From IMG/VR virus record IMGVR_UViG_2563367003_000001: 16,384 nt of DNA, one strand, 5' to 3'. The position numbers were made by a program, and so were the translations under genes. The DNA is from a virus. Lineage: Duplodnaviria > Heunggongvirae > Uroviricota > Caudoviricetes. Below, piece by piece: positions 1 to 13,758 of this stretch (position 1 is the stretch's first letter; every line of letters begins with the position of its first letter). A model generated the notes under the pieces. It was given only the letters and a program-made list of their open reading frames with translations. It had not been told where the DNA came from and did not search any database.

Positions 1-2160
<2,160 letters not shown>

Positions 2161-2236
2161 ACATGAGTCAATGGTGTAAGTATGTGAATGATATAAGAGG
2201 AAAAATAGAGCATAATCTCTACCTGAATGGCTATGT

Positions 2237-2272
2237 TGCAATACACACTGCAATACACACTGCAATACACAG
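2237..2272 (+). repeat. Three tandem 12-bp direct repeats TGCAATACACAC/G (candidate integrase arm-type sites or operator)
   Basis: TGCAATACACAC TGCAATACACAC TGCAATACACAG; related copies near the other end of the element (13310..13350). Confidence 0.8.
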
Positions 2273-2331
2273 AAATCAATGTACAAACCATTCAATTATC
2301 AACCCACAAATGAAGTGAATAAAGATTTGTT

Positions 2332-3093
2332 ATGAATATTATAGATACCCTTCAAAATGACCTAGAGCGCGCAGTAGCGCTTCAAAACATACTAATTGCA
2401 AGAGCTACAGGAGCCCAGGATGAAGCTAATAATGATTATTTGCTTCTAAGAACATATTTCTTACAAAATCCTCCTTTACATCAGCTATTACCAGAGTTTG
2501 TGAGAACTAATCGCTCACTAAAAGAATTTTGGGGATTTATAAAAAAGACTGAAAAGTATGCCCCCCGGAGAGATTTGATTTATAAGGCATTTCAGCCGAT
2601 GCTGGATTATCTAGAAGGGAAAAATAAAGCTCCAGCGGATGAAGACATATCTGATGTATTAAGAAAGTTTAACGAGGATGGAGTCCACGCCGTTTGGATA
2701 AAAGCACTTGAACGGCGCCATACAGATCCGGATGGTGCGATAACCTCCGCAAGAACACTTCTTGAAACAGTTTGCAAACACATTCTTGATGATATGGGCA
2801 TTCAGTATAATAATAAAAATATTGAAATGTCAGAGCTTTATAAAACTCTTTCAAAAGAACTTAACCTATCTGCCGACCAACATACTGAAAATATCTTCAA
2901 ACAAATTCTCGGCGGTTGTTCTGCAGTTGTAAATGGGTTAGGTACTCTTCGTAATAAACTCGGTGATGCACATGGAACGAACAGCTCATCAATTAAGCCA
3001 TCCCCAAGGCATGCCGAACTTGCAGTAAATTTATCAGGCTCAATGGCTCTTTTTTTAATTAACACTTGGTTAAACCTTAAAGATGGGAAATAA
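2332..3093 (+). CDS. HEPN-domain protein with Rx6H motif (Abi_C / abortive-infection-like), 253 aa
   Basis: C-terminal motif GTLRNKLGDAHG fits the HEPN R-x(4-6)-H signature seen in AbiJ/AbiU2/Abi_C proteins. AT-rich gene in the cargo position of the element. Family assignment from motif memory only. Confidence 0.6.
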   Translation: MNIIDTLQNDLERAVALQNILIARATGAQDEANNDYLLLRTYFLQNPPLHQLLPEFVRTNRSLKEFWGFIKKTEKYAPRRDLIYKAFQPMLDYLEGKNKAPADEDISDVLRKFNEDGVHAVWIKALERRHTDPDGAITSARTLLETVCKHILDDMGIQYNNKNIEMSELYKTLSKELNLSADQHTENIFKQILGGCSAVVNGLGTLRNKLGDAHGTNSSSIKPSPRHAELAVNLSGSMALFLINTWLNLKDGK

Positions 3094-3179
3094 CGTATAA
3101 TGAAGTAACACGAGCAATTAGTTAATCATTATACTCAGTCGATTAATTTATTTTGACGACTCGTAAGCAATTTTTCGAT

Positions 3180-3199
3180 GAGGGCGGAACTCCGCCCTC
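3180..3199. repeat. Perfect palindrome GAGGGCGGA-ac-TCCGCCCTC in a 360-bp non-coding spacer
   Basis: 9-bp arms, 2-nt spacer; no flanking U-tract on either strand, so not a canonical intrinsic terminator. Confidence 0.4.
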
Positions 3200-3495
3200 G
3201 GTGCTAACCTATGAGAAACGATATCTCTTCCACCGATACCATAATATTAGGTATCGCGAAGAAGCCCCAAAATCAGTGTGTTGCTTTTACTACCCAAACT
3301 ACCTGTAGTTTCATAGTTGAGTTGCAAATTTGCAATTCGACTACCAGCCACAAGGCGTAAATTTGCGTCGTCAGGAATATCAACGAGTTAGCATATGAAT
3401 AGGCCAAACGGCCACAAACCTCACTTTTGAGGCTTGCTCATTTATTAGCTGGCTATGGTAAGGCCCATTTTGGGGCCGTCGAGAAAATCAAAGAG

Positions 3496-3771
3496 TTATC
3501 GCCGCAGTCTGTCAGGCTTCTTCCACTGGTACGATGCAACGTTCTGGCGTTGTCCCTGCCTCCGCCTAGCTGCCAGTATAGCCAGCACTTTGGTGCGGAT
3601 GACTAAGCAATCCTGTCCGTTCAGTTCTATACCGTCACGCCACATAACCTCAGCAACCACACGAGCGTAATTTTCAGCGGTGACACTGCCCGGCTGCGTG
3701 GCCTGTTCGTCATGCTGGTGGCTGACTCCACCAGCATAGCAGATTACTTTCAGTAGTTCGGATTCAGTCAT
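3496..3771 (-). CDS. Hypothetical protein (91 aa), last gene of the packaging operon downstream of terS
   Basis: ORF 12 bp after the Nu1-like stop, same strand. No recognised similarity; an overlapping plus-strand ORF 3455..3670 is less protein-like. Confidence 0.4.
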   Translation of the reverse strand: MTESELLKVICYAGGVSHQHDEQATQPGSVTAENYARVVAEVMWRDGIELNGQDCLVIRTKVLAILAARRRQGQRQNVASYQWKKPDRLRR

Positions 3772-3782
3772 AGCGTACTACG

Positions 3783-4310
3783 TTACTTATCCTTATTCAG
3801 CTGCAACTTATCCGGTACGTTTCCTGTACTTTCCATCAGATAATCAGCCAGTATCTGTGGGAGGTTGTCAGCAACGCCGGCACTGGCATTACAGGCTTTA
3901 GCCACTTCCTTTTTAAGTCCATCCAGCATAGCCGGAGTCATCTGTGGGAAGCGCCTTTGCATGGTAAGCGGCAGGCTGTCCATGATAGATGAAATCTGAC
4001 TCGCCAGTTTGGAAAGAACATACATACAAAACTCTGTATCAATAACGTCGCCGCGTTCGCGCTCGTTTTTAAGCTCCTGCGCCTCTGCCTGTGCTGTCAG
4101 TAATCTGATCCTGACGCGTAAAAGTTCATCGTCATCAATATCGCCCGTTTCGTTTGTAATCTGGCTGATTGCATTGTTAACCCGATTATCTATTACACTG
4201 GCAACATCATAGAACGCCTCACGGCCCTTACGCTCGACGGGAATCACTCCCCACTTATCGAACGCAGTGGCGCTTACACGGCAACTTTTTGCCATGTTTT
4301 TTTTGTTCAT
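3783..4310 (-). CDS. Small terminase subunit, lambda Nu1-like (satellite-encoded TerS)
   Basis: Middle and C-terminal regions align with lambda Nu1 from memory (AQAEAQELKNERERGDVIDTEFCMYVLSKLASQISSIMDSLPLTMQRRFPQ versus AQADAQELKNARDSAEVVETAFCTFVLSRIAGEIASILDGLPLSVQRRFPE). Sits ~150 bp downstream of the cos-like site, as in lambda. Start chosen at MNKKNMAK; ORF track extends to 4334. Confidence 0.8.
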   Translation of the reverse strand: MNKKNMAKSCRVSATAFDKWGVIPVERKGREAFYDVASVIDNRVNNAISQITNETGDIDDDELLRVRIRLLTAQAEAQELKNERERGDVIDTEFCMYVLSKLASQISSIMDSLPLTMQRRFPQMTPAMLDGLKKEVAKACNASAGVADNLPQILADYLMESTGNVPDKLQLNKDK

Positions 4311-4399
4311 CAGGTGTAATTTCATTGATACCACAACTTAATTACTGTTTCAGGTTGGTGTATTGATTGTATTTTTCTCTTATTATTCATACAGATATA

Positions 4400-4500
4400 G
4401 CGAACAACAAAACCACCACCAGTCCCCTTAAAATGCTCATAAATAGAGAAAACCCGCGCGCCTGACGCCCCGTAGCCTGTCAGATCGCCGGAAAGGACCC
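4400..4500 (-). other. Lambda-like cos site (cosQ-side flank, cosN-equivalent at 4459..4470, start of cosB)
   Basis: Minus strand reads GGGTCCTTTCCGGCGATCTGACAGGCTACG GGGCGTCAGGCG CGCGGGTTTTCTCTATTTATGAGCATTTT. Recalled lambda sequence is ...GGGTCCTTTCCGGTGATCCGACAGGTTACG GGGCGGCGACCT CGCGGGTTTTCGCTATTTATGAAAATTTT. Flanks are near-identical; the central 12-mer differs at ~5 positions. Confidence 0.7.
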
Positions 4501-4526
4501 GCCAGCCAGAGCGGGCCCTAATTTCA

Positions 4527-4910
4527 TCAACCAATCAGCTTATAGCGACCATCCCGTGCATTGCGGCGTACACGCTCAATCTTGAGGCATAGCGCCGCAT
4601 CTGGCTTTTTTGGGACAGGTACGCGGCAATATTCAGAAGCGCGAGGAATATTATTTATCCAGTCGATCACTTCACTTAAATACCAGGCCTTACGCCCTTC
4701 CGTAACCTGCACACGCTCCGGGAACTCTCCACTAGCCTCAAGGTTTAGCAGTGTACGCCGACTCAGGGTTGTAATTTCCATCACCTGATTCATATCAACA
4801 AGGCGCTCGCTTAAACACATTTTGTCAGCGATAGCTTTTAATTCCTCTACAGCTGGATTCGGGTACATCATTTCGGCAATTGGCTTAAGGTCATTGTAAT
4901 CATTCTGCAT
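4527..4910 (-). CDS. AlpA/MerR-like HTH DNA-binding protein (127 aa), between the decoration gene and cos
   Basis: MEITTLSRRTLLNLEASGEFPERVQVTEGRKAWYLSEVIDWINN fits the AlpA-family HTH pattern. RBS GGGGGA 5 nt upstream of ATG at 4910. Function (regulator versus packaging factor) unknown. Confidence 0.6.
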   Translation of the reverse strand: MQNDYNDLKPIAEMMYPNPAVEELKAIADKMCLSERLVDMNQVMEITTLSRRTLLNLEASGEFPERVQVTEGRKAWYLSEVIDWINNIPRASEYCRVPVPKKPDAALCLKIERVRRNARDGRYKLIG

Positions 4911-4921
4911 TGTATCCCCCT

Positions 4922-5263
4922 TTACACACGAGCCAGCGGCTGAACAGAAATACCTGAGCCAACAAACGCGGCAACCTTTGCCGACAGTTCTCTTACAGAC
5001 TCAGGCCAGTTCAGAGCATCAACATTTAAAACACCTGTCTTATAAACCTGTGCCTGTGTTTTTTTCGCTGTGTCGATTTGTACAGCGGAAACATAAACCG
5101 CTTTGCCTGCGCTCGTTCCATCCCATACCACTAGCGCACCAGTTGCATCTTCCTGCATCAGTGGCGTAAACGCAGGTATTACCCCTTTATTGGCTGAAAA
5201 TATCCCCAGCGTAGTAACCAGTGCTTCAGTGCCAGACATGAGTTCAGTGTAATGAGTAGCCAT
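4922..5263 (-). CDS. Head decoration protein, lambda gpD-like (satellite-encoded)
   Basis: 113 aa; AFTPLMQEDATGALVVWDGTSAGKAVYVSAV...QVYKTGVLNVDALNWPES...AFVGSGISV parallels lambda gpD ([31 protein letters not shown]...[18 protein letters not shown]...[10 protein letters not shown]). Strong RBS AAGGGGGAG. Confidence 0.8.
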   Translation of the reverse strand: MATHYTELMSGTEALVTTLGIFSANKGVIPAFTPLMQEDATGALVVWDGTSAGKAVYVSAVQIDTAKKTQAQVYKTGVLNVDALNWPESVRELSAKVAAFVGSGISVQPLARV

Positions 5264-5272
5264 TGCTCCCCC

Positions 5273-6313
5273 TTAGCCAATGCGAACGGTAACAAAACGA
5301 TTGATGCGGGCCGGTATTGGCTGTGGTGCTGAATGTGTCTGCACATATTCAATAGCCGGATCACCAGGCACAATATAGTTTTTCGGTGCAAGTTCGGCTT
5401 TAGTCAGCCCCATTCGGATTAGCTCCGGATCCTGAATACCGCCATAGGCGACAATCCCCTGAAGAGCCGTATTGCCAAGCACCATCAAATCAGGATCAAG
5501 GAAATGTTTTTCAGTTCCGTCCTCGTCGGTATAACGCCCGCTGTATACAACAATCGCAACATCGCCCATATACCCTTTAAAACTCACCGAATCACCAAGG
5601 TCTTTAAGGGCCGTTTCCAGTTCGGAATTAGAACCACGACGGGTATCCAGAGCCTCTTTTATCGCTCTGAATGAACGGTATTTCTTCCATACATTACCGC
5701 CCATAATGATGATATTAGTGACGCCCTCACTAAATTCTGCGTAGCTCTCAATATCATCATTTGGATCAAAAGTTTCTTTATCCTTACCTGACCACTCAGC
5801 ACCGCCAGACTGAGTGATGATATTTTGTGGTTTAATATTCCAGTCCAGCTCATAACGTTCAATACCATCGCCCTCAATGATATTTTTCCCCGTTGTGATT
5901 GCCTGAACGGCAAGCCATTCAATACGTGCACGAATAGCTTTAGCCTGATTTACAATCGCCTGTTTAACTTTAATATTACGCGCTCCAAAAGCATTGTATT
6001 GCTCAGGTGATACACCAGCAGGGCGCACAGCTAACTTATTTGGATCAATGCTGCTTTTCGGCTTCATATAGCCTGGACGAATTGTTTTTGATTCGTACCC
6101 TTCGTCACGTGAAACTTTACTACCCACCATAGGAGAACAAAACGCTGCAATTGGGATATTTGGATCGTCGATTGTATCAAGAATAATATCGCGCGATTCA
6201 AACATTACCGAGCGAGTAAAAAACAAACTGGTAAACAACGCATTTAGTTGTTTTTGTACATCTACAGCATTAACCACCTGTACAAGCTGGGTAGGCGAAT
6301 ATAAATCAACCAT
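5273..6313 (-). CDS. Major capsid protein, lambda gpE-family homolog (divergent, satellite-encoded)
   Basis: Shares blocks with lambda gpE: ITQSGGAEWSGKDKETFDPNDDIESYA, RRGSNSELETALKDLG, GDVAIVVYSG, GYMKPK. Start set at MVDLYSPTQ (RBS AAGAGG); ORF track extends upstream to 6487. Confidence 0.85.
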   Translation of the reverse strand: MVDLYSPTQLVQVVNAVDVQKQLNALFTSLFFTRSVMFESRDIILDTIDDPNIPIAAFCSPMVGSKVSRDEGYESKTIRPGYMKPKSSIDPNKLAVRPAGVSPEQYNAFGARNIKVKQAIVNQAKAIRARIEWLAVQAITTGKNIIEGDGIERYELDWNIKPQNIITQSGGAEWSGKDKETFDPNDDIESYAEFSEGVTNIIIMGGNVWKKYRSFRAIKEALDTRRGSNSELETALKDLGDSVSFKGYMGDVAIVVYSGRYTDEDGTEKHFLDPDLMVLGNTALQGIVAYGGIQDPELIRMGLTKAELAPKNYIVPGDPAIEYVQTHSAPQPIPARINRFVTVRIG

Positions 6314-6487
6314 ACGCATCCTCTTTGCATTCATTAAAAATAATTGTGGATATATGCTATCACCGATATTTGTCATGCGAATACATGCAACCGAGTGCAA
6401 TGTTGTATAAAGTTTTGGGATGACAACTTCAGCACGGATAATTAGTGTTAATATCTTCACTCCCTTTGGTCTGGATTTATGTAGCAT

Positions 6488-6521
6488 GCCGGAAAATTTA
6501 TTTTTTTTCCGGCCTTTTTTA
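6488..6521 (+). terminator. GC-stem hairpin with T-tract (plus-strand orientation) between ssb and the capsid gene
   Basis: GCCGGAAAA-tttatttt-TTTTCCGGC followed by CTTTTTTA on the plus strand; on the minus strand the hairpin is not followed by a U-run. Confidence 0.4.
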
Positions 6522-6531
6522 TTGGCAATAT

Positions 6532-6981
6532 TTAAAACGGAATATCATCTCCCCATTGCTCATTATCTCCCACTGGTGGATGGCTTCCTTGCTGATCTGC
6601 CTGTTGTTTTGCTCTGTTCAGTGCGTCAGTAGCCTGACCCTGTTGATCTTTTTTGCCGCCCGGTCGCACCGTTCGCGCACTGATTACGCTGTCTGCGATA
6701 ACCTGCCAGCCCTGCCGCGTTTCACCGTTCTGTCCAGTCCACTGGCTCACCTGCATATTACCCGCCACGCTCAGGAGTTCGCCTTTGTGATGCTTTGCCA
6801 GCGTGTCGGCTTGTCTGCCAAACGCCAGCACAGATAACCACATCGTCGCCGTTCCGTCATCTGCCTGGCTGCATGGCAAAGATACCGCCATCCGTGCCAG
6901 TGTCATGGGTGTTCCCTTGCTGGTATGTTTTACCTGTGGGTCGTCCACCAGCCGCCCGTAAGCTGCTATTTGCGCCGTCAT
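6532..6981 (-). CDS. ssb: Single-stranded DNA-binding protein (SSB) with C-terminal acidic tip ...WGDDIPF
   Basis: 149 aa; OB-fold-like N-terminus (AYGRLVDDPQ...), Gln/Gly-rich linker, and the DDIPF tail characteristic of bacterial/phage SSBs (E. coli SSB ends DDDIPF). Confidence 0.8.
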   Translation of the reverse strand: MTAQIAAYGRLVDDPQVKHTSKGTPMTLARMAVSLPCSQADDGTATMWLSVLAFGRQADTLAKHHKGELLSVAGNMQVSQWTGQNGETRQGWQVIADSVISARTVRPGGKKDQQGQATDALNRAKQQADQQGSHPPVGDNEQWGDDIPF

Positions 6982-6992
6982 GCTGCCTGCTC

Positions 6993-7235
6993 TCAGGACT
7001 TAATATTGATGGTTGTCACTTCCTCCGCTTCGGCAATCTCCCGTTCGGTCAGCGTGGCAAAGTTTGCAGCCGCCGTTGTCATGAATGCGCTTATCAGTTC
7101 GGGATGTGCTTTCGCGTATCCTTCCCCGGCGTTGCGGTCTATTGCCTTAATCGCCACCCTTAGCCAGTGTTCAGCCATATCAAGGGCGCGGTAATGTGGC
7201 TTTATATGTTTGTTCAGTTTTCCTGATGTGTGCAT
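6993..7235 (-). CDS. Hypothetical protein (80 aa) immediately downstream of the iteron origin
   Basis: ORF with GAGGGGG RBS ~10 nt upstream; no recognised domain. Confidence 0.45.
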   Translation of the reverse strand: MHTSGKLNKHIKPHYRALDMAEHWLRVAIKAIDRNAGEGYAKAHPELISAFMTTAAANFATLTEREIAEAEEVTTINIKS

Positions 7236-7280
7236 TTTTATTTTTACCCCCTCGTTTAAAAAGTTTTTTGTGCACCACCA

Positions 7281-7510
7281 CCTTGTCTACCTTGTCTACC
7301 TGATTAGTTATCAGGCCAGTAATGGCGCGGGTTTCAGGGAGGTAGACAGCCCCAAATAGCTGTCTACCTCATCTCTACCCGTCTCCTTACCTGTCTACAA
7401 AAATGGGTAGATAAGGTAGATAACAGGTAGACAGTGAAAAATAGTTATCTACCTGCATTAATACATTGAAATAAAAGTATTTTATTTCAGTCAGGTAGAC
7501 AAGGTAGATA
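7281..7510. repeat. Replication origin: iteron array (>=11 copies of GGTAGAYA/TRTCTACC in both orientations) plus AT-rich segment
   Basis: CTTGTCTACCTTGTCTACC (7282..7300), GGTAGACAG (7341), TGTCTACC (7361), CTGTCTAC (7391), GGTAGATAAGGTAGATAACAGGTAGACAG (7407..7434), TATCTACC (7447), GGTAGACAAGGTAGATAAC (7493..7511); AT-rich 7457..7490. Lies directly 3' of the helicase gene. Confidence 0.8.
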
Positions 7511-7524
7511 ACCATTGCCATTTT

Positions 7525-9276
7525 TTATAAAAACGCATCGCAATCATCAGTAGTCGTTGCGTTGGTCTGCGTGACTCCCTTAACTTTTCGCGTAATATAT
7601 TCATATCCGTAAACTTTCGCCGCTGACCTCATAGCCTTTCCGAACTCATTCACGCTCAAACATTTCCCCTTTCCTGTATATGCCATGAAGGCCATATAGA
7701 CACGGTAAAGGCTGTTTCTGGTCGTGTACTTCACGGTGTCACCACCACCGCCCATCATTAGCCCACGAGCTTCCTCCAGAAACTCCAGCGCCGCGCAAAG
7801 CTCAACAACCGGATCCGTTTGCTGCTTTATTGCCAGAGCTTCATCACCGTCACGCTGTTCCAGTAATAAAGCCCGTGCCTTTTCAGGGTCAGCAAAATTA
7901 GCCAGCAAGCGGCGGATAATTACGGGGATTTCTGCCGCTATCTTTTCCGGTAATTCCTTGTCTTTTTCGTCCTCCCTTACAATGTTGTCGAACCGGAAAA
8001 TCACCCGACGGCGTGACACACCTCCGGCCCGTTCGGTAAAGATCATCGGGTCGTTATTGGTTGCCAGTACCACCGCCCTTATTATCGTCGTGAATCGCTT
8101 CTCATATTTCGGGTTAATTTCAACGGGATCGCCTCCCGTGATTTTCTTGATGCCCGTGCCTTCCCCCGTATATTTCGGCTGATCGGCAAGGACGATAAGA
8201 CGACTCCCGACAACCTGCGCACGCCCTCCTGCATCATCGAGTGATGTCATCTCTGCGCTTACGGTGTTCTGTTTGCCAGCAAGCAGGGTGGCAATATGGG
8301 TAAATGTACTCTTACCGCTTCCCCCGTCTCCGGTGGCCTCAATGAACATCTGCCAGTCGTACCGGTTCGCCATAATCATGTACAGCGCGGCACATATACG
8401 CATCATCTTGCGCGGGTCTTTTCCGGCTGCGTGCTCAAGCCATTTATGAAAGTTTGGCGCGTTATCGCGGATGTTCTCCCCTGGTGCTGGTGGCGTGTAC
8501 TCAATGCCGTTGTGCGTGGTGATCCAGTTCTCCGGCGTGTGCGGGGAAAATTCCCCCGTTTTCAGGTCAAGCGCACCATTGGCGAACGGCAGCAAATCGC
8601 CGGACGGCTCGCCCATTGGTTCGGCAATAACTTTTAACGCTTCAACGGCGTTATTGATCACGCGTTTGCTGAAAGTGGCCCTGTGCTCTGAATAGATCGC
8701 CACCATTTCGCGGCTCAGCTCCATTGTGCTGATCGGACACCATACCCCGCCGCGCCATACGTGAACGATTTCACTTTCCGGATGCACACAAACGCCATCA
8801 AAGCGCTCGGCAAGCAGCTGCGCGCGCTCACTGTCTGCCATCTGTGAAAGTTGCGCCTTTTGCTTCGTCGGAAGATTAAGCACCAGGCTTTCCCCACGCT
8901 CGCATTCCTCTTTGAGTCGCGGCAACTGGTCGGATAAATCCACTGGGCTGGTGTCAGTAATCCCCGCGTATTCGTGTACGGTCTTCACTCCAGCCACAGC
9001 CAGTAACGTAACAATCTGCGTCATGCTGTGCTCTGTGATATGTCCTGCGCGGTAAACACGCACACACTGACGATCTTCATCAATGATCCGGTAATCGGTG
9101 ATGTTTTTCAGTTGCTCATCAGCCAACACGACAGGCGGCACATCGTCGGCGGCAATATGTTTACCCGCCCATTCCTGCCACTCTTTCGCATGGCTCCACG
9201 CATCACTACCTGCAAAGATGATTATCTCTGTCAGTCTGTCGCGTGGCTGTTTTTTTAAGTTCGGTGCCAGTTTCAT
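7525..9276 (-). CDS. Replication initiator: SF3 helicase of the D5 / P4-alpha family (primase-helicase-like), 583 aa
   Basis: Walker A GDGGSGKST and surrounding D5_N/P4-alpha C-terminal-like sequence; followed by the iteron origin. The N-terminal ~250 aa may be a primase-like domain (not verified). Confidence 0.75.
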   Translation of the reverse strand: MKLAPNLKKQPRDRLTEIIIFAGSDAWSHAKEWQEWAGKHIAADDVPPVVLADEQLKNITDYRIIDEDRQCVRVYRAGHITEHSMTQIVTLLAVAGVKTVHEYAGITDTSPVDLSDQLPRLKEECERGESLVLNLPTKQKAQLSQMADSERAQLLAERFDGVCVHPESEIVHVWRGGVWCPISTMELSREMVAIYSEHRATFSKRVINNAVEALKVIAEPMGEPSGDLLPFANGALDLKTGEFSPHTPENWITTHNGIEYTPPAPGENIRDNAPNFHKWLEHAAGKDPRKMMRICAALYMIMANRYDWQMFIEATGDGGSGKSTFTHIATLLAGKQNTVSAEMTSLDDAGGRAQVVGSRLIVLADQPKYTGEGTGIKKITGGDPVEINPKYEKRFTTIIRAVVLATNNDPMIFTERAGGVSRRRVIFRFDNIVREDEKDKELPEKIAAEIPVIIRRLLANFADPEKARALLLEQRDGDEALAIKQQTDPVVELCAALEFLEEARGLMMGGGGDTVKYTTRNSLYRVYMAFMAYTGKGKCLSVNEFGKAMRSAAKVYGYEYITRKVKGVTQTNATTTDDCDAFL

Positions 9277-9572
9277 TTTTTGCCCCTGAATGCGTTAATC
9301 ATGCTTTTCATTTTCTGGATGTTTCCCCGCGCTTTTTCCCTGCTGATGGGCTTACTGCGGGGTGCGGCATATACCAGGGAAAAATCACGCCGGAACTGAT
9401 AAACAGGCATCACGCAGTCATAGCTATACCCCTCACGACGGTAAGTGATGCGCCGTTCTGCCACGCCTTTAATCGTTACCGTGCCGCCGTATTTATCGCG
9501 GTAAATATCGCCGTTCATAAATTCAGGCCGAGCGGGGCCGCTGGCAATAAAGCCAGAATTTTTCATTTCCAT
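9273..9572 (-). CDS. Hypothetical protein (99 aa), translationally coupled to the helicase gene (ATGA overlap)
   Basis: ORF in operon context; no recognised motif. Confidence 0.45.
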   Translation of the reverse strand: MEMKNSGFIASGPARPEFMNGDIYRDKYGGTVTIKGVAERRITYRREGYSYDCVMPVYQFRRDFSLVYAAPRSKPISREKARGNIQKMKSMINAFRGKK

Positions 9573-9589
9573 ATTATTTATTCCTCGAC

Positions 9590-9811
9590 TTAACTCGACT
9601 TATTTGATAGCAGGGCACTATTTATTGCGTCATTGAGTTTTTCTGCTGCTTCATCAATAAGTGACAACAGGCCATAAGCAATATTTGCATCTTCATTGTC
9701 ATTTATGCAATCAAGCCACATATTTAATATTGCTTTTGCTGAATTATTTAAAGTTAATGAACTTTCTGCACATGCTAACAATTTAAAAAAGACTTCCCGT
9801 TCTGTATTCAT
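9590..9811 (-). CDS. Hypothetical protein (73 aa), AT-rich
   Basis: ORF in operon context; composition differs from neighbours. Confidence 0.4.
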   Translation of the reverse strand: MNTEREVFFKLLACAESSLTLNNSAKAILNMWLDCINDNEDANIAYGLLSLIDEAAEKLNDAINSALLSNKSS

Positions 9812-10003
9812 TTAATCCCCCACCAGCTTACTTTCTTCCTCAATCAAAAAACTAGCGACACTTCCCGAAAGACGCGCCAGTAGGCTCGCCAGTGCGGATA
9901 TATCAGCATCTGTAATTTTGTTCGGGTATACCTCAAGAAGGCGGCAAATAATTTCTGTCTGGTGCGCACGTTCAGCGGCTTCGTGTAATGTGATTTCCTG
10001 CAT
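9812..10003 (-). CDS. Hypothetical protein (63 aa)
   Basis: ORF abutting the next gene with no spacer (stop/start coupling). Confidence 0.4.
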   Translation of the reverse strand: MQEITLHEAAERAHQTEIICRLLEVYPNKITDADISALASLLARLSGSVASFLIEEESKLVGD

Positions 10004-10188
10004 TAATGCACCTCTTTTAATTCATACACTGCTGAAATAATGACTTGTGATAAGCCATATTCTGATGATTCGCTTCTCACCGCAGCAATAGCCGTCTGAA
10101 CATTAACAGCCTTCACATTCTGAGCGATACCAATTGTGTGGCCTATTGGGTTAACAGCTCGGGCAAATACACGGAAGGTTTTAAGCAT
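10003..10188 (-). CDS. Hypothetical protein (61 aa)
   Basis: Start ATG overlaps the stop of the upstream 65-aa ORF (ATGCTTAA). Confidence 0.4.
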   Translation of the reverse strand: MLKTFRVFARAVNPIGHTIGIAQNVKAVNVQTAIAAVRSESSEYGLSQVIISAVYELKEVH

Positions 10189-10378
10189 GACTCACTCCCT
10201 GGCGGATTTTTGCAGCGAATACAGCAACACAACCGGACGGGCAACGGCTACGCGCTTCGCGTTCCGTCCAGGCGGTTACGTGGATGATTTGAGATTCTCC
10301 GGCACTCAGTGCCAGAAAACGCCACACAAAGGCCGTTTGTGTGTGTACAAGGTGTGGTATATGATTTACAGCAACCAT
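10181..10378 (-). CDS. Hypothetical protein (65 aa), first gene of the leftward operon
   Basis: Strong RBS AGGAGCCGTT-ATG. It is the 3' part of the 243-aa ORF 10181..10912 in the track; only the portion downstream of this RBS is considered real. Confidence 0.5.
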   Translation of the reverse strand: MVAVNHIPHLVHTQTAFVWRFLALSAGESQIIHVTAWTEREARSRCPSGCVAVFAAKIRQGVSHA

Positions 10379-10390
10379 AACGGCTCCTAG

Positions 10391-10568
10391 TTTACGTTGT
10401 TGGTTAGACGCCCCGTATGTGTTCCCAGCACTGCGGGGCGTTGCTCTTTGTATTTCAACAATTCTTTCGGTGTGTTTCATGTTATGAGCGCATGAAACAC
10501 ACGTCAAGGCTTTTTGTATTTCTTTTTTTGTGTATACTGAAACACACCGATGATTAGGAGTTTCAGAA
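10391..10568. promoter_or_regulatory. Divergent promoter/operator region between the leftward operon and the rightward RHH gene
   Basis: Inverted repeat GACGCCCCG...CGGGGCGT (10408..10440); palindrome TGTGTTTCATG...CATGAAACACA (10472..10500); second direct copy TGAAACACACC (10539..10549); -10-like TATACT (10531..10536); RBS AGGAG before ATG at 10569. Confidence 0.55.
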
Positions 10569-10874
10569 ATGGCAACGGCTAACAAAAACGCAAAATCACA
10601 ACTGACAACTGTCAGAGTCCCACTAGATGTTATGCAAGGGATGGAATCCGTTAAGCTGGACGGTGAAAGCAATGCCGGATTTATCGTAACCGCCATGCGC
10701 GGTGAAATCGCCCGCCGCCAGGCAGAAGGAAGCGGAGAAAATCCCCTCGTGTCTTCACTGGATGCCTTAGCTAAGGTCGAACAAATCGGCATCAAGGCAG
10801 CGGAGGAAATCGGGCAACTCGTAGCCGTCGCTCGTGAAGAACTCCAGCGGCGTAAAGCCAAAGAATCTGAATAA
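10569..10874 (+). CDS. Putative ribbon-helix-helix-type transcriptional regulator (101 aa)
   Basis: N-terminal beta-strand/helix pattern (TTVRVPLDVMQGMESVKLD...NAGFIVTAMRGEIARR) plus coiled C-terminus. AGGAG RBS. Divergent from the replication operon. Fold assignment is inference. Confidence 0.5.
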   Translation: MATANKNAKSQLTTVRVPLDVMQGMESVKLDGESNAGFIVTAMRGEIARRQAEGSGENPLVSSLDALAKVEQIGIKAAEEIGQLVAVAREELQRRKAKESE

Positions 10875-11224
10875 TTAGTATCAGCGCCGTGATGTGAGTA
10901 ACTACGGCGCATTGCTATGTAAATACTGGCAATAAACAGAAAAGGTAGTTCTACTCCGAATAATTTTATCTGACACTACTCCTGAACTAACATGCGCTTA
11001 TCTTACAGGATATAAATATAAATCCATAAAATCACGATTAAATAAAGTCGCTCCAAACATAAACCACACCCAACGCTTAACAAGATAGCAACAAACAGGT
11101 AAATAACTTGCAGAAATATTTATCGCAAGGATTATCATTATTAATGACAAATCACTTTACCAAGTCATTCCCCTCTCTTATCATAAAGAGAAAGTAATAA
11201 ATAAGTTAAGGGAGTTAGAATGCT

Positions 11225-11761
11225 ATGAATCTAAAAAAAATAGCCACAAACACAAAAAACAAGATAACAGAAACATTTAATAAACTTATATTAGAGGCAT
11301 CTAAAACCCCCACACAAGATGAAATTAAAATACTTGAGAGAAGGAGTAAGAAGTTTAATTACTCCTTTTTCTCATACGCAGTCACAGGAGCTATAATAGT
11401 TTTTTGCTCTCAACCATTAATTAAATACGCAAACCCAATACTTATTTTATTGAGTGGTCTGTTACTGTCTATCATCATTATCATTCTCAGAATGATTTAT
11501 ATTTCACAAGCGAATGCATCATGGACAACCAAAAAACGCTCACATGTACTAGTTCATTTTCTTTCTGCATGTTTCATAGCATCAACATTGACGTTGCTAT
11601 ATCAGGCTTACGATAATAACATCACACACAAATTGTACTGTAAAAATATACAACAACTTATTGAAAAAAGGATAGAAACAGAAAAAAACATCAGCATATT
11701 CAGTGGGATGCAATGCACCCCGGTATATGATTACTCTTTATTTGGATTTAATCTCTTATAA
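11225..11761 (+). CDS. Small membrane protein (178 aa, ~3 predicted TM helices), very AT-rich cargo gene
   Basis: Hydrophobic segments FFSYAVTGAIIVFCSQPLI, ILILLSGLLLSIIIIILRMIYI, VLVHFLSACFIASTLTLLY. Strongly AT-rich versus the flanks. No recognised family. Confidence 0.55.
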   Translation: MNLKKIATNTKNKITETFNKLILEASKTPTQDEIKILERRSKKFNYSFFSYAVTGAIIVFCSQPLIKYANPILILLSGLLLSIIIIILRMIYISQANASWTTKKRSHVLVHFLSACFIASTLTLLYQAYDNNITHKLYCKNIQQLIEKRIETEKNISIFSGMQCTPVYDYSLFGFNLL

Positions 11762-11770
11762 AGAATGTTA

Positions 11771-11804
11771 TTACTGATTTGAGTACAAATTCTCAAATCA
11801 GTAA
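11771..11804. terminator. Bidirectional intrinsic terminator hairpin between convergent genes
   Basis: 13-bp perfect stem TTACTGATTTGAG / CTCAAATCAGTAA with 8-nt loop, A/T-rich flanks on both sides; lies between the plus-strand membrane-protein gene and the minus-strand alpA gene. Confidence 0.65.
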
Positions 11805-11830
11805 TTCATAATATTTTATTCTGAGATAAT

Positions 11831-12058
11831 TTAAACTACCCACTCACCTCGAATCCATGCCTGCACTTCTGAAAGACGATATGCAACAGCAGTGGAACCA
11901 ATCTTGATCCGCTTAGGAAATTTTCCTTCCTTCTCCAGCTTCCAGCGTGTGCTGTTCGCAAGAGTGGTTAGCTCCCGACATTCTTTCTCACGGATCATTC
12001 GGTCAATGTTAGGAATGTACTCCAGACCCTTTTTATCAACAATTGCCATTTTTTTCAT
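11831..12058 (-). CDS. alpA: AlpA-family HTH protein (excisionase/Vis-like regulator), 75 aa
   Basis: IREKECRELTTLANSTRWKLEKEGKFPKRIKIGSTAVAYRLSEVQAWI fits the AlpA pattern; immediately downstream of the integrase gene. Confidence 0.8.
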   Translation of the reverse strand: MKKMAIVDKKGLEYIPNIDRMIREKECRELTTLANSTRWKLEKEGKFPKRIKIGSTAVAYRLSEVQAWIRGEWVV

Positions 12059-12059
12059 G

Positions 12060-13295
12060 TTAACCAGCCTTTTGTTTGAGGATTGTCACTTTTGAATCAG
12101 CACCTGCGATGCTATTGAGATATGTAGTCCAGAGTTCCAGAGCATCCAGTTTTTTAGCCATAAACTTACTCCGGTTGTAAACACCTGCCACGCCAGGTAG
12201 CGCATGGCCTAACAGTTGTTCTACTACATAAAATTCAACACCGAGATCACTTAGATGAGTAGATAGCGTTCTTCTAAGGTCGTGTAGTGACCATTGTTTT
12301 TCATGGCCCAAACGTTTACCGATTTTCCCCCCAATCTTGCTTACGCTTTCTCTAATTCGCAGACTTCCCAGCACATAACCAGTATGTTTTGTCTCTTCGT
12401 GAACATCCGTTACCCACTGTCGTAGAATTTCAGGTACTGGTCTGACGATTTCAACACCAGTTTTTGAGTGATCTTTTGGTACAGTCCAAACCCAACTTTC
12501 GAGATCCCATTCGCTCCATTCTGATAATCGGGCTTCACTCATTCGACATCCAAATACTGTACAAAGCACAAACATTTTTCGCGTGTATTCAGACATTAGT
12601 TTTAAATCAGGCTCGACAAAAATTGCCTTCCAGAGCTGGCCGAGTTCGGCTTCATCCAGAACCCGATCCCGCTTACCTGCAATCTGCCCCACATCACTCA
12701 TGCGCAAATCCTTTAAAGCATCACACGTCGCGTACTGGCGTACCCGACAAAAACGAAGAGCTAATTTAGTGTCAGAAAAAACATACGCCGCCATAACTGG
12801 TGCATTACGTTTAATTCGGTCAAAACAGTCCAGCCATTCATATAGGTGAGTGTCATTTACGGGCAAATGACCGATATAGGGAAAGATATGCTTTCGAAAT
12901 CTGCCAAGCGTTACAGCATGAGTTTTACGACGCACCTTACAGTAATTTTCATACCAGTAATTTAGTGCATCCTCCACTGTAACCGGCTTTAAGCGTTCTT
13001 CAGCCTGAATCTTAATCTGGATACGCGGATCACGTTTGTCAGCCAACCAACCACGGCACTCGTCGCGCTTTTCCCTTGCCTGTTTGAGTGACATATCAGG
13101 ATATTTACCCAACGTTAGCCAGACCGGAGCAGCCCGGCCACCTGCTAACCTGTAGAAGAAAACAAAGCTCACAGCCCCTTTAGTACTCACACGAATAGAA
13201 AGCCCCTTTCCATCAGCAATGGTGATCTGCTTTTCTCTGGGTTTCCCCAGATATCCTTTAAGCGCTTTGTCGCTCAGTTTGTTCTCGCCAGCCAT
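12060..13295 (-). CDS. int: Tyrosine site-specific integrase, P4-type
   Basis: N-terminal arm-binding-like region (LSDKALKGYLGKPREKQITIADGKGLSIRVSTKGAVSFVFFYR), catalytic-box residues (HDLRRT, LLGHA...GVYNRS). Start set at MAGENKLSDK; ORF track extends to a GTG at 13346. Confidence 0.9.
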   Translation of the reverse strand: MAGENKLSDKALKGYLGKPREKQITIADGKGLSIRVSTKGAVSFVFFYRLAGGRAAPVWLTLGKYPDMSLKQAREKRDECRGWLADKRDPRIQIKIQAEERLKPVTVEDALNYWYENYCKVRRKTHAVTLGRFRKHIFPYIGHLPVNDTHLYEWLDCFDRIKRNAPVMAAYVFSDTKLALRFCRVRQYATCDALKDLRMSDVGQIAGKRDRVLDEAELGQLWKAIFVEPDLKLMSEYTRKMFVLCTVFGCRMSEARLSEWSEWDLESWVWTVPKDHSKTGVEIVRPVPEILRQWVTDVHEETKHTGYVLGSLRIRESVSKIGGKIGKRLGHEKQWSLHDLRRTLSTHLSDLGVEFYVVEQLLGHALPGVAGVYNRSKFMAKKLDALELWTTYLNSIAGADSKVTILKQKAG

Positions 13296-13309
13296 TTTTA
13301 GCCCCAAAA

Positions 13310-13350
13310 AGCAATACAAGCTGCAATACAGAGATGATTGCAACACACAG
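13310..13350 (+). repeat. Direct repeats related to TGCAATACA (AGCAATACA, TGCAATACA, TGCAACACA) upstream of int
   Basis: Same motif and orientation as the 3x12-bp array at 2237..2272 at the opposite end of the element. Confidence 0.7.
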
Positions 13351-13457
13351 ATAACGAGGAAAATTCAGTGAAAGCACCAGATAAACTTATTCTTTATTAT
13401 CAAAAGATTAAGTGTAAAAACCAGCAACTACACGAAAGCCTCAGAAAGCCATGCTAA

Positions 13458-13703
13458 GTGCTTCGGCTTGACATATCCCGGCGTAAATTCAGAGGTGGAG
13501 CCGCCACGGGAGCGGATAACCTCACCGGAAACAATCGGCGAAACGTACAGCGCCATGTTTACCAGCCCCGGAATTTGTGAGAGATAGACTTTCTCCGTGG
13601 TGAAGGGATAGCTCTCACGGAAAAAGAGACGCAGAAACAGCGGATCAAACTTAAATTTCTGCTCATTTGCCGCCAGCAGCTGGGCGGTTGTGTACATCGA
13701 CAT
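13458..13703 (-). pseudogene. E: Lambda-like major capsid protein E, N-terminal fragment (residues 1 to ~91), interrupted by the inserted element
   Basis: MSMYTTAQLLAANEQKFKFDPLFLRLFFRESYPFTTEKVYLSQIPGLVNMALYVSPIVSGEVIRSRGGSTSEFTPGYVKPKH matches the lambda gpE N-terminus; the frame then reads 9 unrelated codons (LAWLSEAFV) into the element and stops at 13428. Confidence 0.9.
13459..13468. repeat. Right junction core (attR-like): TGCTTCGGCT
   Basis: Identical to 2151..2160; lambda E sequence continues on the high-coordinate side. Confidence 0.7.
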
Positions 13704-13758
13704 AAAAAAATCCCGTAAAAAAAGCCGCACAGGCGGCCTTTAGTGATGAAGGGTAAGG

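Follow-up and report, generated by a model that had tools for sequence, protein, structure and literature searches.

A putative ribbon-helix-helix repressor and its operator array facing the replication operon of a helper-embedded phage satellite

We propose, at a probability of roughly three in four, that a small ribbon-helix-helix (RHH) protein of a phage satellite would bind an array of short repeats and thereby repress both the leftward replication operon facing it and its own promoter, with an antisense RNA furnishing a second layer of control. The repeats, promoter geometry, protein fold, covariation and strand-specific RNA structure behind this reading were computed, and from them we infer DNA binding, repression, expression of the RNA and the lifting of repression; the comparisons across loci likewise suggest for this 101-aa protein the role of a 'master repressor'. 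The putative RHH/operator module occurs widely: of 5426 complete E. coli genomes, 1298 contain DNA that matches a 1.8-kb stretch encompassing it, the model island EcCICFT073 also carries it, and it is reported in the cf-PICIs of Enterobacter too. The activator AlpA is the switch known from EcCICFT073, for which no repressor phenotype has been reported, and the difference between Gram-negative and Gram-positive islands has been termed 'a mystery' (PMC6092414). If our reading is true, the protein would be a candidate for the repressor believed to be missing from Gram-negative satellites of the PICI type. Our literature search found no paper describing this gene as a regulator, nor one on this repressor module.

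The island, its back-to-back promoters and the repeat array

The window (the whole stretch of 16,384 nucleotides that was analyzed) contains a phage satellite residing in an E. coli prophage. This island is a known helper-embedded PICI (HE-PICI) lying inside the prophage capsid gene at the described insertion site E:Phage_cap_E:80 (PMC10111431): an int-alpA-...-primase island is placed at about codon 80 of a lambda-E-type capsid gene, whose halves flank it as matches to positions 1-78 (13428-13730, − strand) and 94-328 (1370-2146, − strand) of the Phage_cap_E profile. In a 99.9% identical locus, PGAP reports both capsid pseudogene halves. The int gene (12060-13346, − strand) and an AlpA-like gene (11831-12058, − strand) are convergent with the + strand gene for the 101-aa protein (10569-10874), which on its other side faces the replication operon across two back-to-back promoters, as the sequence-only reading had it. 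The first gene of this leftward operon codes for a 65-aa Icd-like (host cell division inhibitor-like) protein (10181-10378, − strand; Shine-Dalgarno AGGAG at 10384-10388, − strand), recognized by the NF033153 phage_ICD_like model (63.7 bits against a cutoff of 25) and annotated as such by PGAP in the 99.9% identical locus. The remainder of the operon (7525-10188, − strand) comprises three small ORFs, a DUF4222 gene (9273-9572, − strand) and a D5_N/DUF5906 primase-helicase, i.e., a D5-type primase (7525-9276, − strand). With the Icd-like CDS as the leftward neighbor, the true intergenic region is 10379-10568, and its size has to be corrected from an earlier 178 bp to 190 bp.

The predicted leftward promoter, TTGACG-17-TAACAT, has its −35 element at 10502-10507 (− strand) and its −10 element TAACAT at 10479-10484 (− strand), the latter being marked out by both a consensus promoter scan and conservation. 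The predicted rightward promoter of the RHH gene has a poor −35 and the −10 element TATACT at 10533-10538 (+ strand). The scan flagged the leftward promoter only, passing over the rightward one and the antisense promoter considered below. Of the 58 unique upstream regions, nearly all keep this geometry: on the − strand, TTGAC(N)-17/18-TAnnnT recurs at −62, with weaker alternative hexamers in class B and in loci L004 and L066 (for the repeat classes, see below), and a rightward TAnnnT recurs at −36/−35 from the ATG, save in two class F loci that differ.

Each of the two −10 elements is bracketed by two sites of a repeat array. The exact 10-mer TGAAACACAC occurs three times in the 16-kb window, all within 78 bp, as against a mean of 0.03 copies in dinucleotide-preserving shuffles, none of 200 of which reaches three. 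Two of the copies form the palindromic pair GTGTGTTTCATG-N9-CATGAAACACAC at 10470-10502; this pair, the third copy near a −10 element and a GC-rich inverted repeat had all been noticed in the sequence-only reading and are present as described. Counting degenerate copies, there are five 9-bp sites (three perfect, two degenerate) with the consensus TGTGTTTCA in the window and with centers 22, 22, 22 and 23 bp apart. Putative operator site 1 (TGAAACACAC, 10470-10479, − strand) shares the final base of the leftward −10 and covers the predicted start (~10472), and site 2 (TGAAACACAC, 10493-10502, + strand) lies in the spacer of the leftward promoter, adjoining its −35. Site 3 (10515-10523, + strand), in the spacer/−35 zone of the rightward promoter, is the degenerate TGTATTTCT with two mismatches to the consensus; other classes have a class-specific copy at this position. 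Site 4 (TGAAACACAC, 10538-10547, + strand) abuts the rightward −10, overlapping its last base and the predicted start. Finally, site 0 (TGTATTTCA, one mismatch, 10449-10457, + strand) lies 22 bp upstream of site 1 and was seen only in classes A and B, among them locus L022. The class A half-sites are invariant or nearly so in Escherichia, Xenorhabdus, Photorhabdus and Serratia, and the spacer between them varies freely. Sites of mixed orientation are seen in classes B, F and H. Upstream of the prophage's own ylcI gene (L001, 21100-21560), a comparable repeat array was not found.

A + strand hairpin and a candidate antisense RNA

The GC-rich inverted repeat had been taken as part of the operator region; it is instead, by its pattern of substitutions, an RNA hairpin selected on the + strand, and probably the intrinsic terminator of an antisense RNA. 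Its arms, ACGCCCCG (10408-10415) and CGGGGCGT (10434-10441), are 100% complementary and 18 nt apart, and the full hairpin (10407-10442, + strand) is followed by the U-rich tail GCTCTTTGTATTTC (10443-10456), which site 0 overlaps. In the hairpin alignment (A3), 92% of the cells are paired, four pairs show compensatory change and none of 500 shuffles reaches the observed score. One might alternatively place the hairpin in the leader of the leftward mRNA, as a 5′ stabilizer or a device sequestering the ribosome-binding site: it sits between the predicted leftward start and the Icd-like Shine-Dalgarno, and the − strand folds too (−13 to −24 kcal/mol). This seems unlikely given the strand asymmetry of the data. 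The alignment has 42 cells with G·T/T·G (G·U in the + strand RNA) against two with C·A/A·C, and thus many variants would be mismatched in the − strand RNA. Moreover, for each of the 49 variants the + strand form is the more stable one, only the + strand has the U-rich tract 3′ of the hairpin, and the − strand (sense) leader folds no better than its shuffles (z = −1.1).

On the antisense-terminator reading, the hairpin would close a candidate cis-antisense RNA of about 85 nt with predicted ends at 10372 and 10456 (+ strand), whose sequence is complementary to the Icd-like mRNA from its 5′ UTR through the Shine-Dalgarno to the start codon. This stretch folds on the + strand into two hairpins at −33.6 kcal/mol (z = −4.5). 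The first of them, a 5′ hairpin (10373-10405, + strand), presents a CUCCU loop complementary to the Icd-like Shine-Dalgarno; a like fold is found in 30 unique variants, with the + strand being more stable than the − strand in all 30. The + strand is G+T-rich here, which by itself favors the folding of that strand. A candidate −10 element, TATGAT, lies at 10360-10365 (+ strand) inside codons 5-7 of the Icd-like gene, with TGG at 10355-10357 preceding a TATATG that overlaps it. Across all types a TAnnnT precedes the hairpin base by a constant 36-37 nt, whereas its distance from the ATG of the left gene ranges over 5-13 nt; this −10-like hexamer is in register with the hairpin and not with the codons. 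Several types carry TGGTATAAT or TGGTATGAT, and in several types the candidate antisense promoter is weak. Together, these features suggest that an antisense RNA over the Icd-like ribosome-binding site probably exists. In CFT073 (NC_004431.1), where the RHH gene occupies 1380473-1380652, the corresponding stretch is on the − strand of the record from 1380653 to about 1380860 and reaches slightly beyond the start codon of the Icd-like gene at 1380852. Rfam yielded no family for this part of the window, either at the gathering score or at E ≤ 10 (9900-11300); the only weak match, to a microRNA family, was dismissed as meaningless.

The 101-aa protein, its putative operators and a proposed mechanism

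The rightward ORF of the sequence-only reading is present, with its AGGAG Shine-Dalgarno (10556-10560, + strand) 8 nt before the ATG; the GGAG is invariant in the alignment of upstream regions (A2). By profile match, its product is a member of the uncharacterized YlcI/YnfO family: the 42-residue N-terminal model NCBIfam NF041551 (YlcI_YnfO_N) hits residues 9-50 with 62.6 bits against a cutoff of 30 (E = 2.7e-17), and PGAP gives the same name to the homolog in the 99.9% identical locus. The protein is most likely an RHH DNA-binding protein. Its predicted RHH domain (~11-50) has the strand-helix A-helix B topology of that superfamily in about 45 residues, with the strand QLTTVRVP, helices at 19-28 and 35-55 and, at the N-terminus of helix B, the G-x-S/T/N turn as D31-G-E-S-N35; among 30 homologs, E33 hardly varies and position 34 is almost always S or T. 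Residues 59-100 form a long conserved helix. The modeled N-terminus superposes on complete RHH chains, which agrees with the RHH-like N-terminus proposed earlier, the model being a monomer of an obligate-dimer fold with a pTM of 0.41. The best structural matches are RHH antitoxins, viz. Rv0298, MazE4/6/7, TacA1 and CopA_SO; a Foldseek search of the PDB with the monomer model returned nothing below E = 6.

At the sequence level, no significant profile match to curated RHH families was found with Pfam, PDB or hhalign comparisons. The best Pfam hit, PSK_trans_fac, stays below its cutoff (16.3 against 28.3 bits) and is weakly matched by 22 of 30 homologs (best E = 0.0011). Likewise, phmmer and hmmsearch/profile searches of PDB sequences did not find an RHH match, and hhalign against a hand-typed Arc/Mnt/CopG alignment gave a probability of 8%, with the strand and helix A in register. 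The top PDB profile match, a helix-hairpin-helix segment of Hef (E = 0.007), falls on the C-terminal helix and is not an RHH domain. A repressor of the lambda CI type had been discounted earlier, and we concur, as Pfam and NCBIfam give no HTH (HTH_3/XRE) or S24 peptidase match to this protein of 101 aa with its RHH-like fold. As tblastn against 50,697 GenBank phage records found no match to the 101-aa protein, the full-length form appears to be satellite-specific, with no characterized phage homolog.

The structural matches raise the alternative that the protein is an antitoxin-like factor that binds DNA only for autoregulation and chiefly neutralizes a toxic partner, such as the Icd-like protein or the product of a small downstream ORF, via its C-terminus. 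The latter is highly conserved independently of the operator class, Icd-like proteins are annotated as division inhibitors, and in some loci a small ORF lies 58 nt downstream. Yet we consider this improbable, for there is no conserved co-transcribed partner: the + strand has no ORF of at least 40 aa between 10874 and 11225, those found downstream elsewhere vary and give no match to a toxin family, and the Icd-like gene is divergent and hence not co-transcribed. Furthermore, the EcCICFT073 protein is a short form that lacks the whole C-terminal helix but still has an operator array. Repression of the leftward promoter would be compatible with an antitoxin as well.

The main evidence that ties the repeats to the RHH protein comes from a comparison of 155 related loci. 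In these, seven repeat classes correspond one-to-one to classes of the N-terminal strand with no conflicts, three QMKNIRFP loci having no assigned motif. The strand QLTTVRVP or QLFTVRVP goes with TGTGTTTCA, QMTTIRVP with GTGA(G/T)ATATACA, QSLTARIP with TGTAAGAC, KQISIRIP with TGTGATTC, QQLNARFP with TGGTATTCA, Q(L/V)KN(I/V)RIP with GTGTGTATTTA and QMKNIRFP with GTGTGC(T/A)AC; an eighth type from CFT073 pairs QALKARVP with GTGGCCCAC. Within a locus all copies of the repeat change in step, whereas the promoter elements are constant. No such coupling to the class holds for the remainder of the protein, the neighboring Icd-like gene or the type of replicase, all of which recombine freely: identical C-terminal sequences are paired with up to four classes, identical Icd-like proteins with two, and the replicase type (D5_N, DUF927 or AAA_25) is independent of the repeat class. 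For the Icd-like proteins we relied on exact-sequence sharing between classes, since single linkage at 60% identity had merged the proteins and so left the clustering uninformative. The specificity determinant thus appears to map to the N-terminus of the protein, and the earlier view of the repeats as operators, here of the 101-aa protein, is well supported by this covariation. The repetition of the sites and the way their sequence varies with strand and arm residues would also lend indirect support to an RHH homodimer that places a two-stranded antiparallel sheet in the major groove.

Nevertheless, the operator block adjoins the first ~35 codons of the gene, and hence the covariation may in part reflect linkage within one recombination cassette. 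One could go further and hold that it is linkage only, with the repeats being bound by AlpA, which is the demonstrated regulator of EcCICFT073 (PMC6092414), or by a host or helper-phage protein. The divergent block is indeed contiguous (~−160 to +110), and class A and B proteins differ only at residues 2-5 and by L12M, V15I, L19H and Q23E. However, this too we regard as quite improbable. The concerted change of three to five copies per locus, with conserved promoter elements in between, requires a cognate reader changing alongside them; the DNA on both sides of the block is common to different classes (90-100% identical in cross-class pairs), and thus that reader cannot be encoded farther away in the element; and eight specificities would be needless for a host or helper factor. 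Further, the variable residues sit on the very arm and strand with which RHH proteins such as Arc, Mnt and CopG read DNA. The sites of classes A and B are very different, so much specificity would be resting on few residues. That the repeats are instead replication-origin iterons bound by the island initiator/primase, as their regular 22-23 bp spacing over five sites (a 22-bp period being typical of plasmid iterons) and the adjoining replication operon might suggest, is highly improbable, since class C sites occur with AAA_25 in L019 but with a D5_N primase in L020, the D5_N type is found with classes A, C, D and G, the sites, which differ in orientation, flank two conserved −10 elements, and their sole covarying partner is the N-terminus of the small protein.

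Hence, we propose that the RHH protein would read the periodic 9-bp sites, whose centers lie 22-23 bp or two helical turns apart, via its N-terminal arm and β-strand. The promoter predicted to drive the Icd-like gene, the small ORFs, DUF4222 and the primase has its −10 bracketed by sites 1 and 2, and the protein's own promoter has its −10 bracketed by sites 3 and 4; given that both −10 elements are so bracketed, the bound protein would repress the replication operon and autoregulate. Repression is expected to be tighter at the two perfect left sites than at the right pair, which would be weaker owing to the degenerate site 3. RHH dimers sitting two turns apart are probably held together by the conserved C-terminal helix, which may also serve as a contact surface for another protein. 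A second, post-transcriptional layer is probable, in which a short + strand RNA starting in the first Icd-like codons and ending at the GC-rich hairpin would base-pair with the Icd-like mRNA at its ribosome-binding site.

How repression would be lifted is a separate matter. The module had been cast as the likely point of helper-phage sensing, a claim that lacks support because published work on EcCICFT073 places sensing at alpA expression, with AlpA as the demonstrated inducer (PMC6092414). We tentatively offer a broader conjecture, at rather less than even odds, for Gram-negative PICIs (EcCICFT073 and the HE-PICIs). They would have a YlcI/YnfO-type RHH master repressor in at least eight hetero-immune classes and a cis-antisense RNA against the Icd-like gene; AlpA would induce not by activating the repressed promoter but by read-through transcription antisense across the repressor gene into the replication operon, and in HE-PICIs helper late transcription could act likewise in cis. 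AlpA in Pseudomonas is an antiterminator.

If the protein is a repressor, it would provide a direct handle on satellite silencing and explain allelic 'immunity' classes among co-resident islands. Its eight or more orthogonal repressor/operator pairs, few residues apart, would furthermore constitute a data set for the rules of RHH recognition. If real, the antisense RNA would be new among prophage/satellite small RNAs, with a division-inhibitor-like gene under its control.

Comparison with known systems

The immI region of phage P22 combines the RHH repressors Mnt and Arc with the divergent promoters Pmnt and Pant and the sar antisense RNA. The satellite module resembles it in having a small putative RHH repressor that would autoregulate and is divergent from the operon that it would control, a putative operator overlapping back-to-back promoters and, as in Mnt, an RHH domain followed by a C-terminal helical domain (which in Mnt serves oligomerization). 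Moreover, sar covers the ribosome-binding site of ant, the first toxic or regulatory gene there, as the candidate antisense RNA would that of the Icd-like gene. However, there is no detectable sequence homology to Arc/Mnt (hhalign probability 8%), four or five sites 22 bp apart take the place of the single 17-21 bp operator of P22, a satellite replication module with an Icd-like head gene takes that of the antirepressor, and there are at least eight specificity classes.

An Icd-like head gene with a candidate small RNA at its translation-initiation region is also reminiscent of P1/P7 immI (c4 RNA-icd-ant) and of the P4 CI RNA (PMC10111431). Here, a putative protein repressor is additionally present, and an Rfam search for C4/isrK upstream of the icd-like gene gave no match (window at gathering score; 9900-11300 at E ≤ 10). 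The c4 and CI RNAs are processed from the sense transcript and act by loop-target pairing; in contrast, the structured RNA here is on the opposite strand and would thus be cis-antisense.

With Stl and Rpr of SaPIs and Gram-positive PICIs, the module shares a gene divergent from the excision-replication operon, the need for silence until a helper is active and allelic diversity (PMC6092414). Those are larger HTH proteins co-oriented with int, as against an RHH protein that is divergent from the replication operon yet convergent with int and alpA. While derepression of Stl by a helper protein has been shown, the demonstrated inducer in Gram-negative PICIs is the activator AlpA (PMC6092414).

NikR, whose operator is GTATGA-N16-TCATAC, and certain other RHH tetramers bridge two sites two helical turns apart. 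NikR resembles the proposed arrangement in that a C-terminal oligomerization domain spaces RHH dimers on sites with centers about 22 bp apart; its domain is, however, metal-binding and ACT-like as opposed to a single long helix that is absent in the CFT073 short form. Omega (pSM19035), ParG and CopG place RHH dimers on arrays of short direct or inverted repeats that overlap promoters. They do so in plasmid copy-number and partition control, on contiguous 7-bp heptads or 4-bp-spaced motifs rather than on 9-bp sites with a 22-bp period, but tolerate the same mixed orientation of sites that is seen in classes B, F and H of the satellite array.

The satellite island and its divergent control region

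The window is E. coli DNA (the query 9500-11300 is 99.9% identical to many complete genomes), and the gene for a 101-aa YlcI/YnfO-family protein (10569-10874, +; hereinafter the RHH gene, for ribbon-helix-helix) lies with its upstream sites within an island of ~11 kb (about 2150-13420). The island interrupts a lambdoid prophage at about codon 80 of its major capsid gene, which is of lambda-E type, leaving Phage_cap_E profile positions 1-78 at 13428-13730(-) and positions 94-328 at 1370-2146(-). This configuration, a helper-embedded phage satellite (PICI) at the site E:Phage_cap_E:80, was published by Tommasini, Mageeney and Williams (PMC10111431), and the island as such is already known; the RHH gene is not discussed in that paper. 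The island codes for a tyrosine integrase (12060-13346, -), an AlpA/excisionase-like HTH protein (11831-12058, -), a 178-aa protein with no assigned function (11225-11761, +), a leftward series of genes (Icd-like, three small ORFs, DUF4222, D5_N/DUF5906 primase, an 80-aa ORF and SSB), its own lambda-E-type capsid (5273-6487) and D-type decoration (4922-5263) genes, a second AlpA-like protein, and a cargo of an Abi_C (abortive-infection C-terminus) protein and a Nu1-like small terminase/packaging protein (2332-3093, + and 3783-4334, -). In strain 14EC020, an otherwise near-identical island has DUF262 and HEPN genes in place of this cargo, and the position looks like a variable defense hotspot. 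In the prophage part, the interval separating the 3′ capsid fragment from an IS3-type transposase gene (9-1055) contains a strong full-length Rfam match (150 bits) to the Hfq-binding sRNA isrC (1068-1190, -).

The leftward neighbor of the RHH gene is the Icd-like CDS (10181-10378, -; AGGAG at 10384-10388), so the intergenic region measures 190 bp; the sequence-only reading had located it correctly but gave 178 bp. The inverted repeat, palindromic pair and third copy described there are all present on direct reading: a perfect 8-bp inverted repeat with an 18-nt gap, ACGCCCCG (10408-10415) / CGGGGCGT (10434-10441); the pair GTGTGTTTCATG-N9-CATGAAACACAC (10470-10502); and TGAAACACAC (10538-10547), which touches TATACT (10533-10538). 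All three copies of the exact 10-mer in the 16,384-base window fall in this region, against 0.03 expected, and none of 200 shuffles reached three. Two weaker copies, TGTATTTCA (10449-10457) and TGTATTTCT (10515-10523), bring the array to five sites (0-4, left to right) with centre-to-centre spacings of 22, 22, 22 and 23 bp. An 11-nt sequence, GGCAACGGCTA, is repeated exactly and in direct orientation, inside the Icd-like gene (10240-10250) and in codons 1-5 of the RHH gene (10571-10581), which may be due to chance.

A consensus scan placed the leftward promoter, TTGACG-17-TAACAT, on the - strand at 10507..10479. Across 58 unique upstream regions of related loci, TTGAC(N)-17/18-TAnnnT is position-conserved in nearly all, the exceptions (class B, defined below, and loci L004 and L066) having a weaker alternative hexamer pair, and a + strand TAnnnT hexamer lies 35-36 nt ahead of the ATG in all except the two class F loci. 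The leftward -10 is bracketed by site 2, which occupies the spacer beside the -35, and by site 1, which covers the start site; the rightward -10 is bracketed likewise by sites 3 and 4. Sites of the left pair are perfect; those of the right pair are imperfect. Judged by sequence, this is the layout of a putative repressor shutting both promoters.

Covariation of sites and N-terminal strand

We gathered 166 sequence sources (genomes, metagenomes and viral contigs), in 155 of which both the gene and its upstream region could be used. Site positions, about -98, -76, -53 and -31 relative to the ATG, are shared by all classes, while the site sequence is class-specific, and across the 155 loci each site class goes with one N-terminal strand (residues ~11-18) with no class conflict. 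Thus, QLTTVRVP or QLFTVRVP pairs with TGTGTTTCA (class A, the type of the window), QMTTIRVP with GTGA(G/T)ATATACA (class B), QSLTARIP with TGTAAGAC, KQISIRIP with TGTGATTC, QQLNARFP with TGGTATTCA, Q(L/V)KN(I/V)RIP with GTGTGTATTTA, and QMKNIRFP with GTGTGC(T/A)AC, three loci of this last type being assigned no class by motif search. The promoter hexamers stay constant between classes and every site copy in a locus switches in concert. Class A sites are invariant or nearly so in Escherichia, Xenorhabdus, Photorhabdus and Serratia, while the spacer separating sites 1 and 2 varies freely.

C-terminal protein halves of identical sequence are found in as many as four classes and Icd-like proteins of identical sequence in two, and replicase type shows no correspondence with site class. 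In cross-class pairs the divergent block spans about -160 to +110, with flanking DNA 90-100% identical. The covariation, the free recombination of the C-terminus, Icd-like protein and replicase, and these block limits together argue that the predicted reader of the sites is encoded in the first ~35 codons of the RHH gene. These codons cover the arm and strand, the base-contacting parts of RHH proteins such as Arc, Mnt and CopG. As the divergent block is contiguous, linkage contributes to the covariation signal. Moreover, class A and B proteins (window 10569-10640 versus locus L037 and related) differ only at residues 2-5, L12M, V15I, L19H and Q23E and are identical beyond residue 23, yet their sites are unrelated; either very few residues decide this specificity or another factor adds to it.

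The 101-aa protein and its relatives

The protein matches NCBIfam YlcI_YnfO_N (62.6 bits; cutoff 30) and PHROG 6522, to which no function is assigned; no Pfam model reached its cutoff, and PSK_trans_fac matches 22 of 30 homologues, all under its cutoff. Sequence and profile searches of the PDB gave no relevant match, hhalign against Arc, Mnt and CopG gave a probability of just 8%, tblastn with the full-length protein against 50,697 GenBank phage records found nothing, and Foldseek with the model returned no match. The AlphaFold2 model (30 homologues as input; pLDDT 82.8) opens with a short strand at the N-terminus, followed by helices at 19-28 and 35-55 and then by a long one spanning 59-100. 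Superposed on RHH chains, its N-terminus gave 47/54 for MazE7, 49/51 for TacA1, 46/49 for MazE6-N, 47/48 for CopA_SO and 43/45 for StnY, and the D-G-E-S-N turn preceding helix B is consistent with the RHH G-x-S/T/N motif. Since sequence-level links are weak or absent, its prediction as an RHH protein rests on modeled fold and motif rather than on family membership.

The C-terminal helix (residues ~59-90; 10745-10840) has a weak profile match (E = 0.007), centered on the invariant E71-x-I73-G74, to the helix-hairpin-helix (HhH) region of Hef (1x2i); AlphaFold renders it as a single continuous helix, and the segment may be a coiled coil or an HhH-like hairpin. Just past the stop codon, a hairpin GCGCCGT...ACGGCGC (10884-10910) without a clear U-tract folds modestly better than shuffles (z = -1.55), is kept in CFT073 and in locus L015 (there with a T·G wobble on the + strand), and may be a 3′ end or processing element. 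The 64-aa YlcI of the prophage itself (locus L001, 21537-21731) is plainly RHH-like in pattern (RNIRFP, helix, G-S-G-N, helix); its gene and the small-terminase gene nohD are divergently arranged, and no comparable repeat array was seen upstream of ylcI.

The model island EcCICFT073 of E. coli CFT073 has the same order: int, alpA and the YlcI/YnfO gene, then divergent Icd-like, DUF4222 and primase. The protein encoded there is only 59 aa long, a short form (locus L166 5474-5653(-); NC_004431.1 1380473-1380652) in which the RHH domain is fused straight to the basic tail, residues ~51-93 (the long helix) being missing; the function can therefore, at least in part, do without the long helix. The strand QALKARVP with sites GTGGCCCAC at -98 and -75, plus GTCCCCCAC past the -10, constitutes an eighth specificity type.

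A candidate antisense RNA and the proposed circuit

The sequence-only reading had taken the GC-rich inverted repeat as part of the operator; its pairing and G·U bias instead mark it as a + strand RNA element. Its 14-pair helix is 92% paired in 22 distinct variants with compensatory change at four pairs, a score reached by 0/500 shuffles, and its non-Watson-Crick cells comprise 42 G·T or T·G as against only two C·A or A·C. The former pair only in + strand RNA. A U-rich tract follows 3′ of the helix on the + strand only. Directly upstream is a second hairpin, conserved in fold and not in sequence, whose + strand is more stable in 30/30 unique variants, as is that of the full 87-nt element in 49/49 variants, with the G+T-rich composition of the + strand a partial confound. 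The two-hairpin fold of 10372-10458(+) reaches -33.6 kcal/mol (z = -4.5), as compared to z = -1.1 for the sense leader, and its first loop presents CUCCU, the complement of the Icd-like Shine-Dalgarno sequence. A -10-like hexamer (TATGAT, TGGTATAAT, TATGCT, TAGACT or TACTAT) lies 36-37 nt ahead of the hairpin base in every type, while its distance to the Icd-like ATG and the codons it overlaps vary. EcCICFT073 also has this two-hairpin + strand element, preceded by TGGTATGAT. The candidate matches no Rfam family. The most economical reading, which we favor by a modest degree, is an expressed ~85-nt cis-antisense RNA that would mask the Icd-like ribosome-binding site. Within the Icd-like CDS, a terminator-like - strand hairpin, CACACAAACGGCCTTTGTGTG then GCGTTTTCTG (10323-10343, tail to ~10313), could be an attenuator in the first gene or a by-product of the codons for the conserved motif HTQTAFVWRFL.

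From the site array, promoter geometry, fold, covariation and strand-specific RNA structure, all computed directly, we put at roughly three in four the probability that the 101-aa protein binds the repeats and represses both promoters. RHH dimers would occupy the sites, with the C-terminal helix joining dimers two turns apart; both promoters would be repressed, the leftward more tightly, and the antisense RNA would stop Icd-like translation from leak transcripts.

As to release, Fillol-Salom et al. (PMC6092414) showed AlpA to be an activator induced by the helper, and AlpA-family proteins can be antiterminators (PMC7969949). Consistent with published data, AlpA-driven - strand transcription might cross the repressor gene in antisense and continue into the replication operon, so that the repressed promoter is bypassed; in embedded islands, helper late transcription could take the same route. 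Helper sensing via the conserved C-terminus, with Stl as analogue, is possible, and the earlier proposal that the RHH/operator module is itself the point of helper-phage sensing we regard as doubtful.

According to Fillol-Salom et al., a global repressor in Gram-negative PICIs "is unclear" (PMC6092414). In the papers on EcCICFT073, cf-PICIs and HE-PICIs that were consulted we found no mention of a repressor or of the YlcI/YnfO gene as a regulator; one survey names a "YlcI/YnfO, prophage-associated protein" in cf-PICIs with no function assigned. The predicted repressor module is a widespread, apparently undescribed candidate with eight or more specificity classes, whose value lies in its location, a satellite family for which the means of silencing is a recognized gap. 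It has no detectable membership in P22 immI or P1 immI. Nevertheless, P22 immI is the closest in logic, combining divergent promoters under the RHH repressors Mnt and Arc with an antisense RNA, sar; P1 immI, where an RNA controls icd, is also similar, and the proposed helix-linked dimers two turns apart resemble the geometry of NikR.
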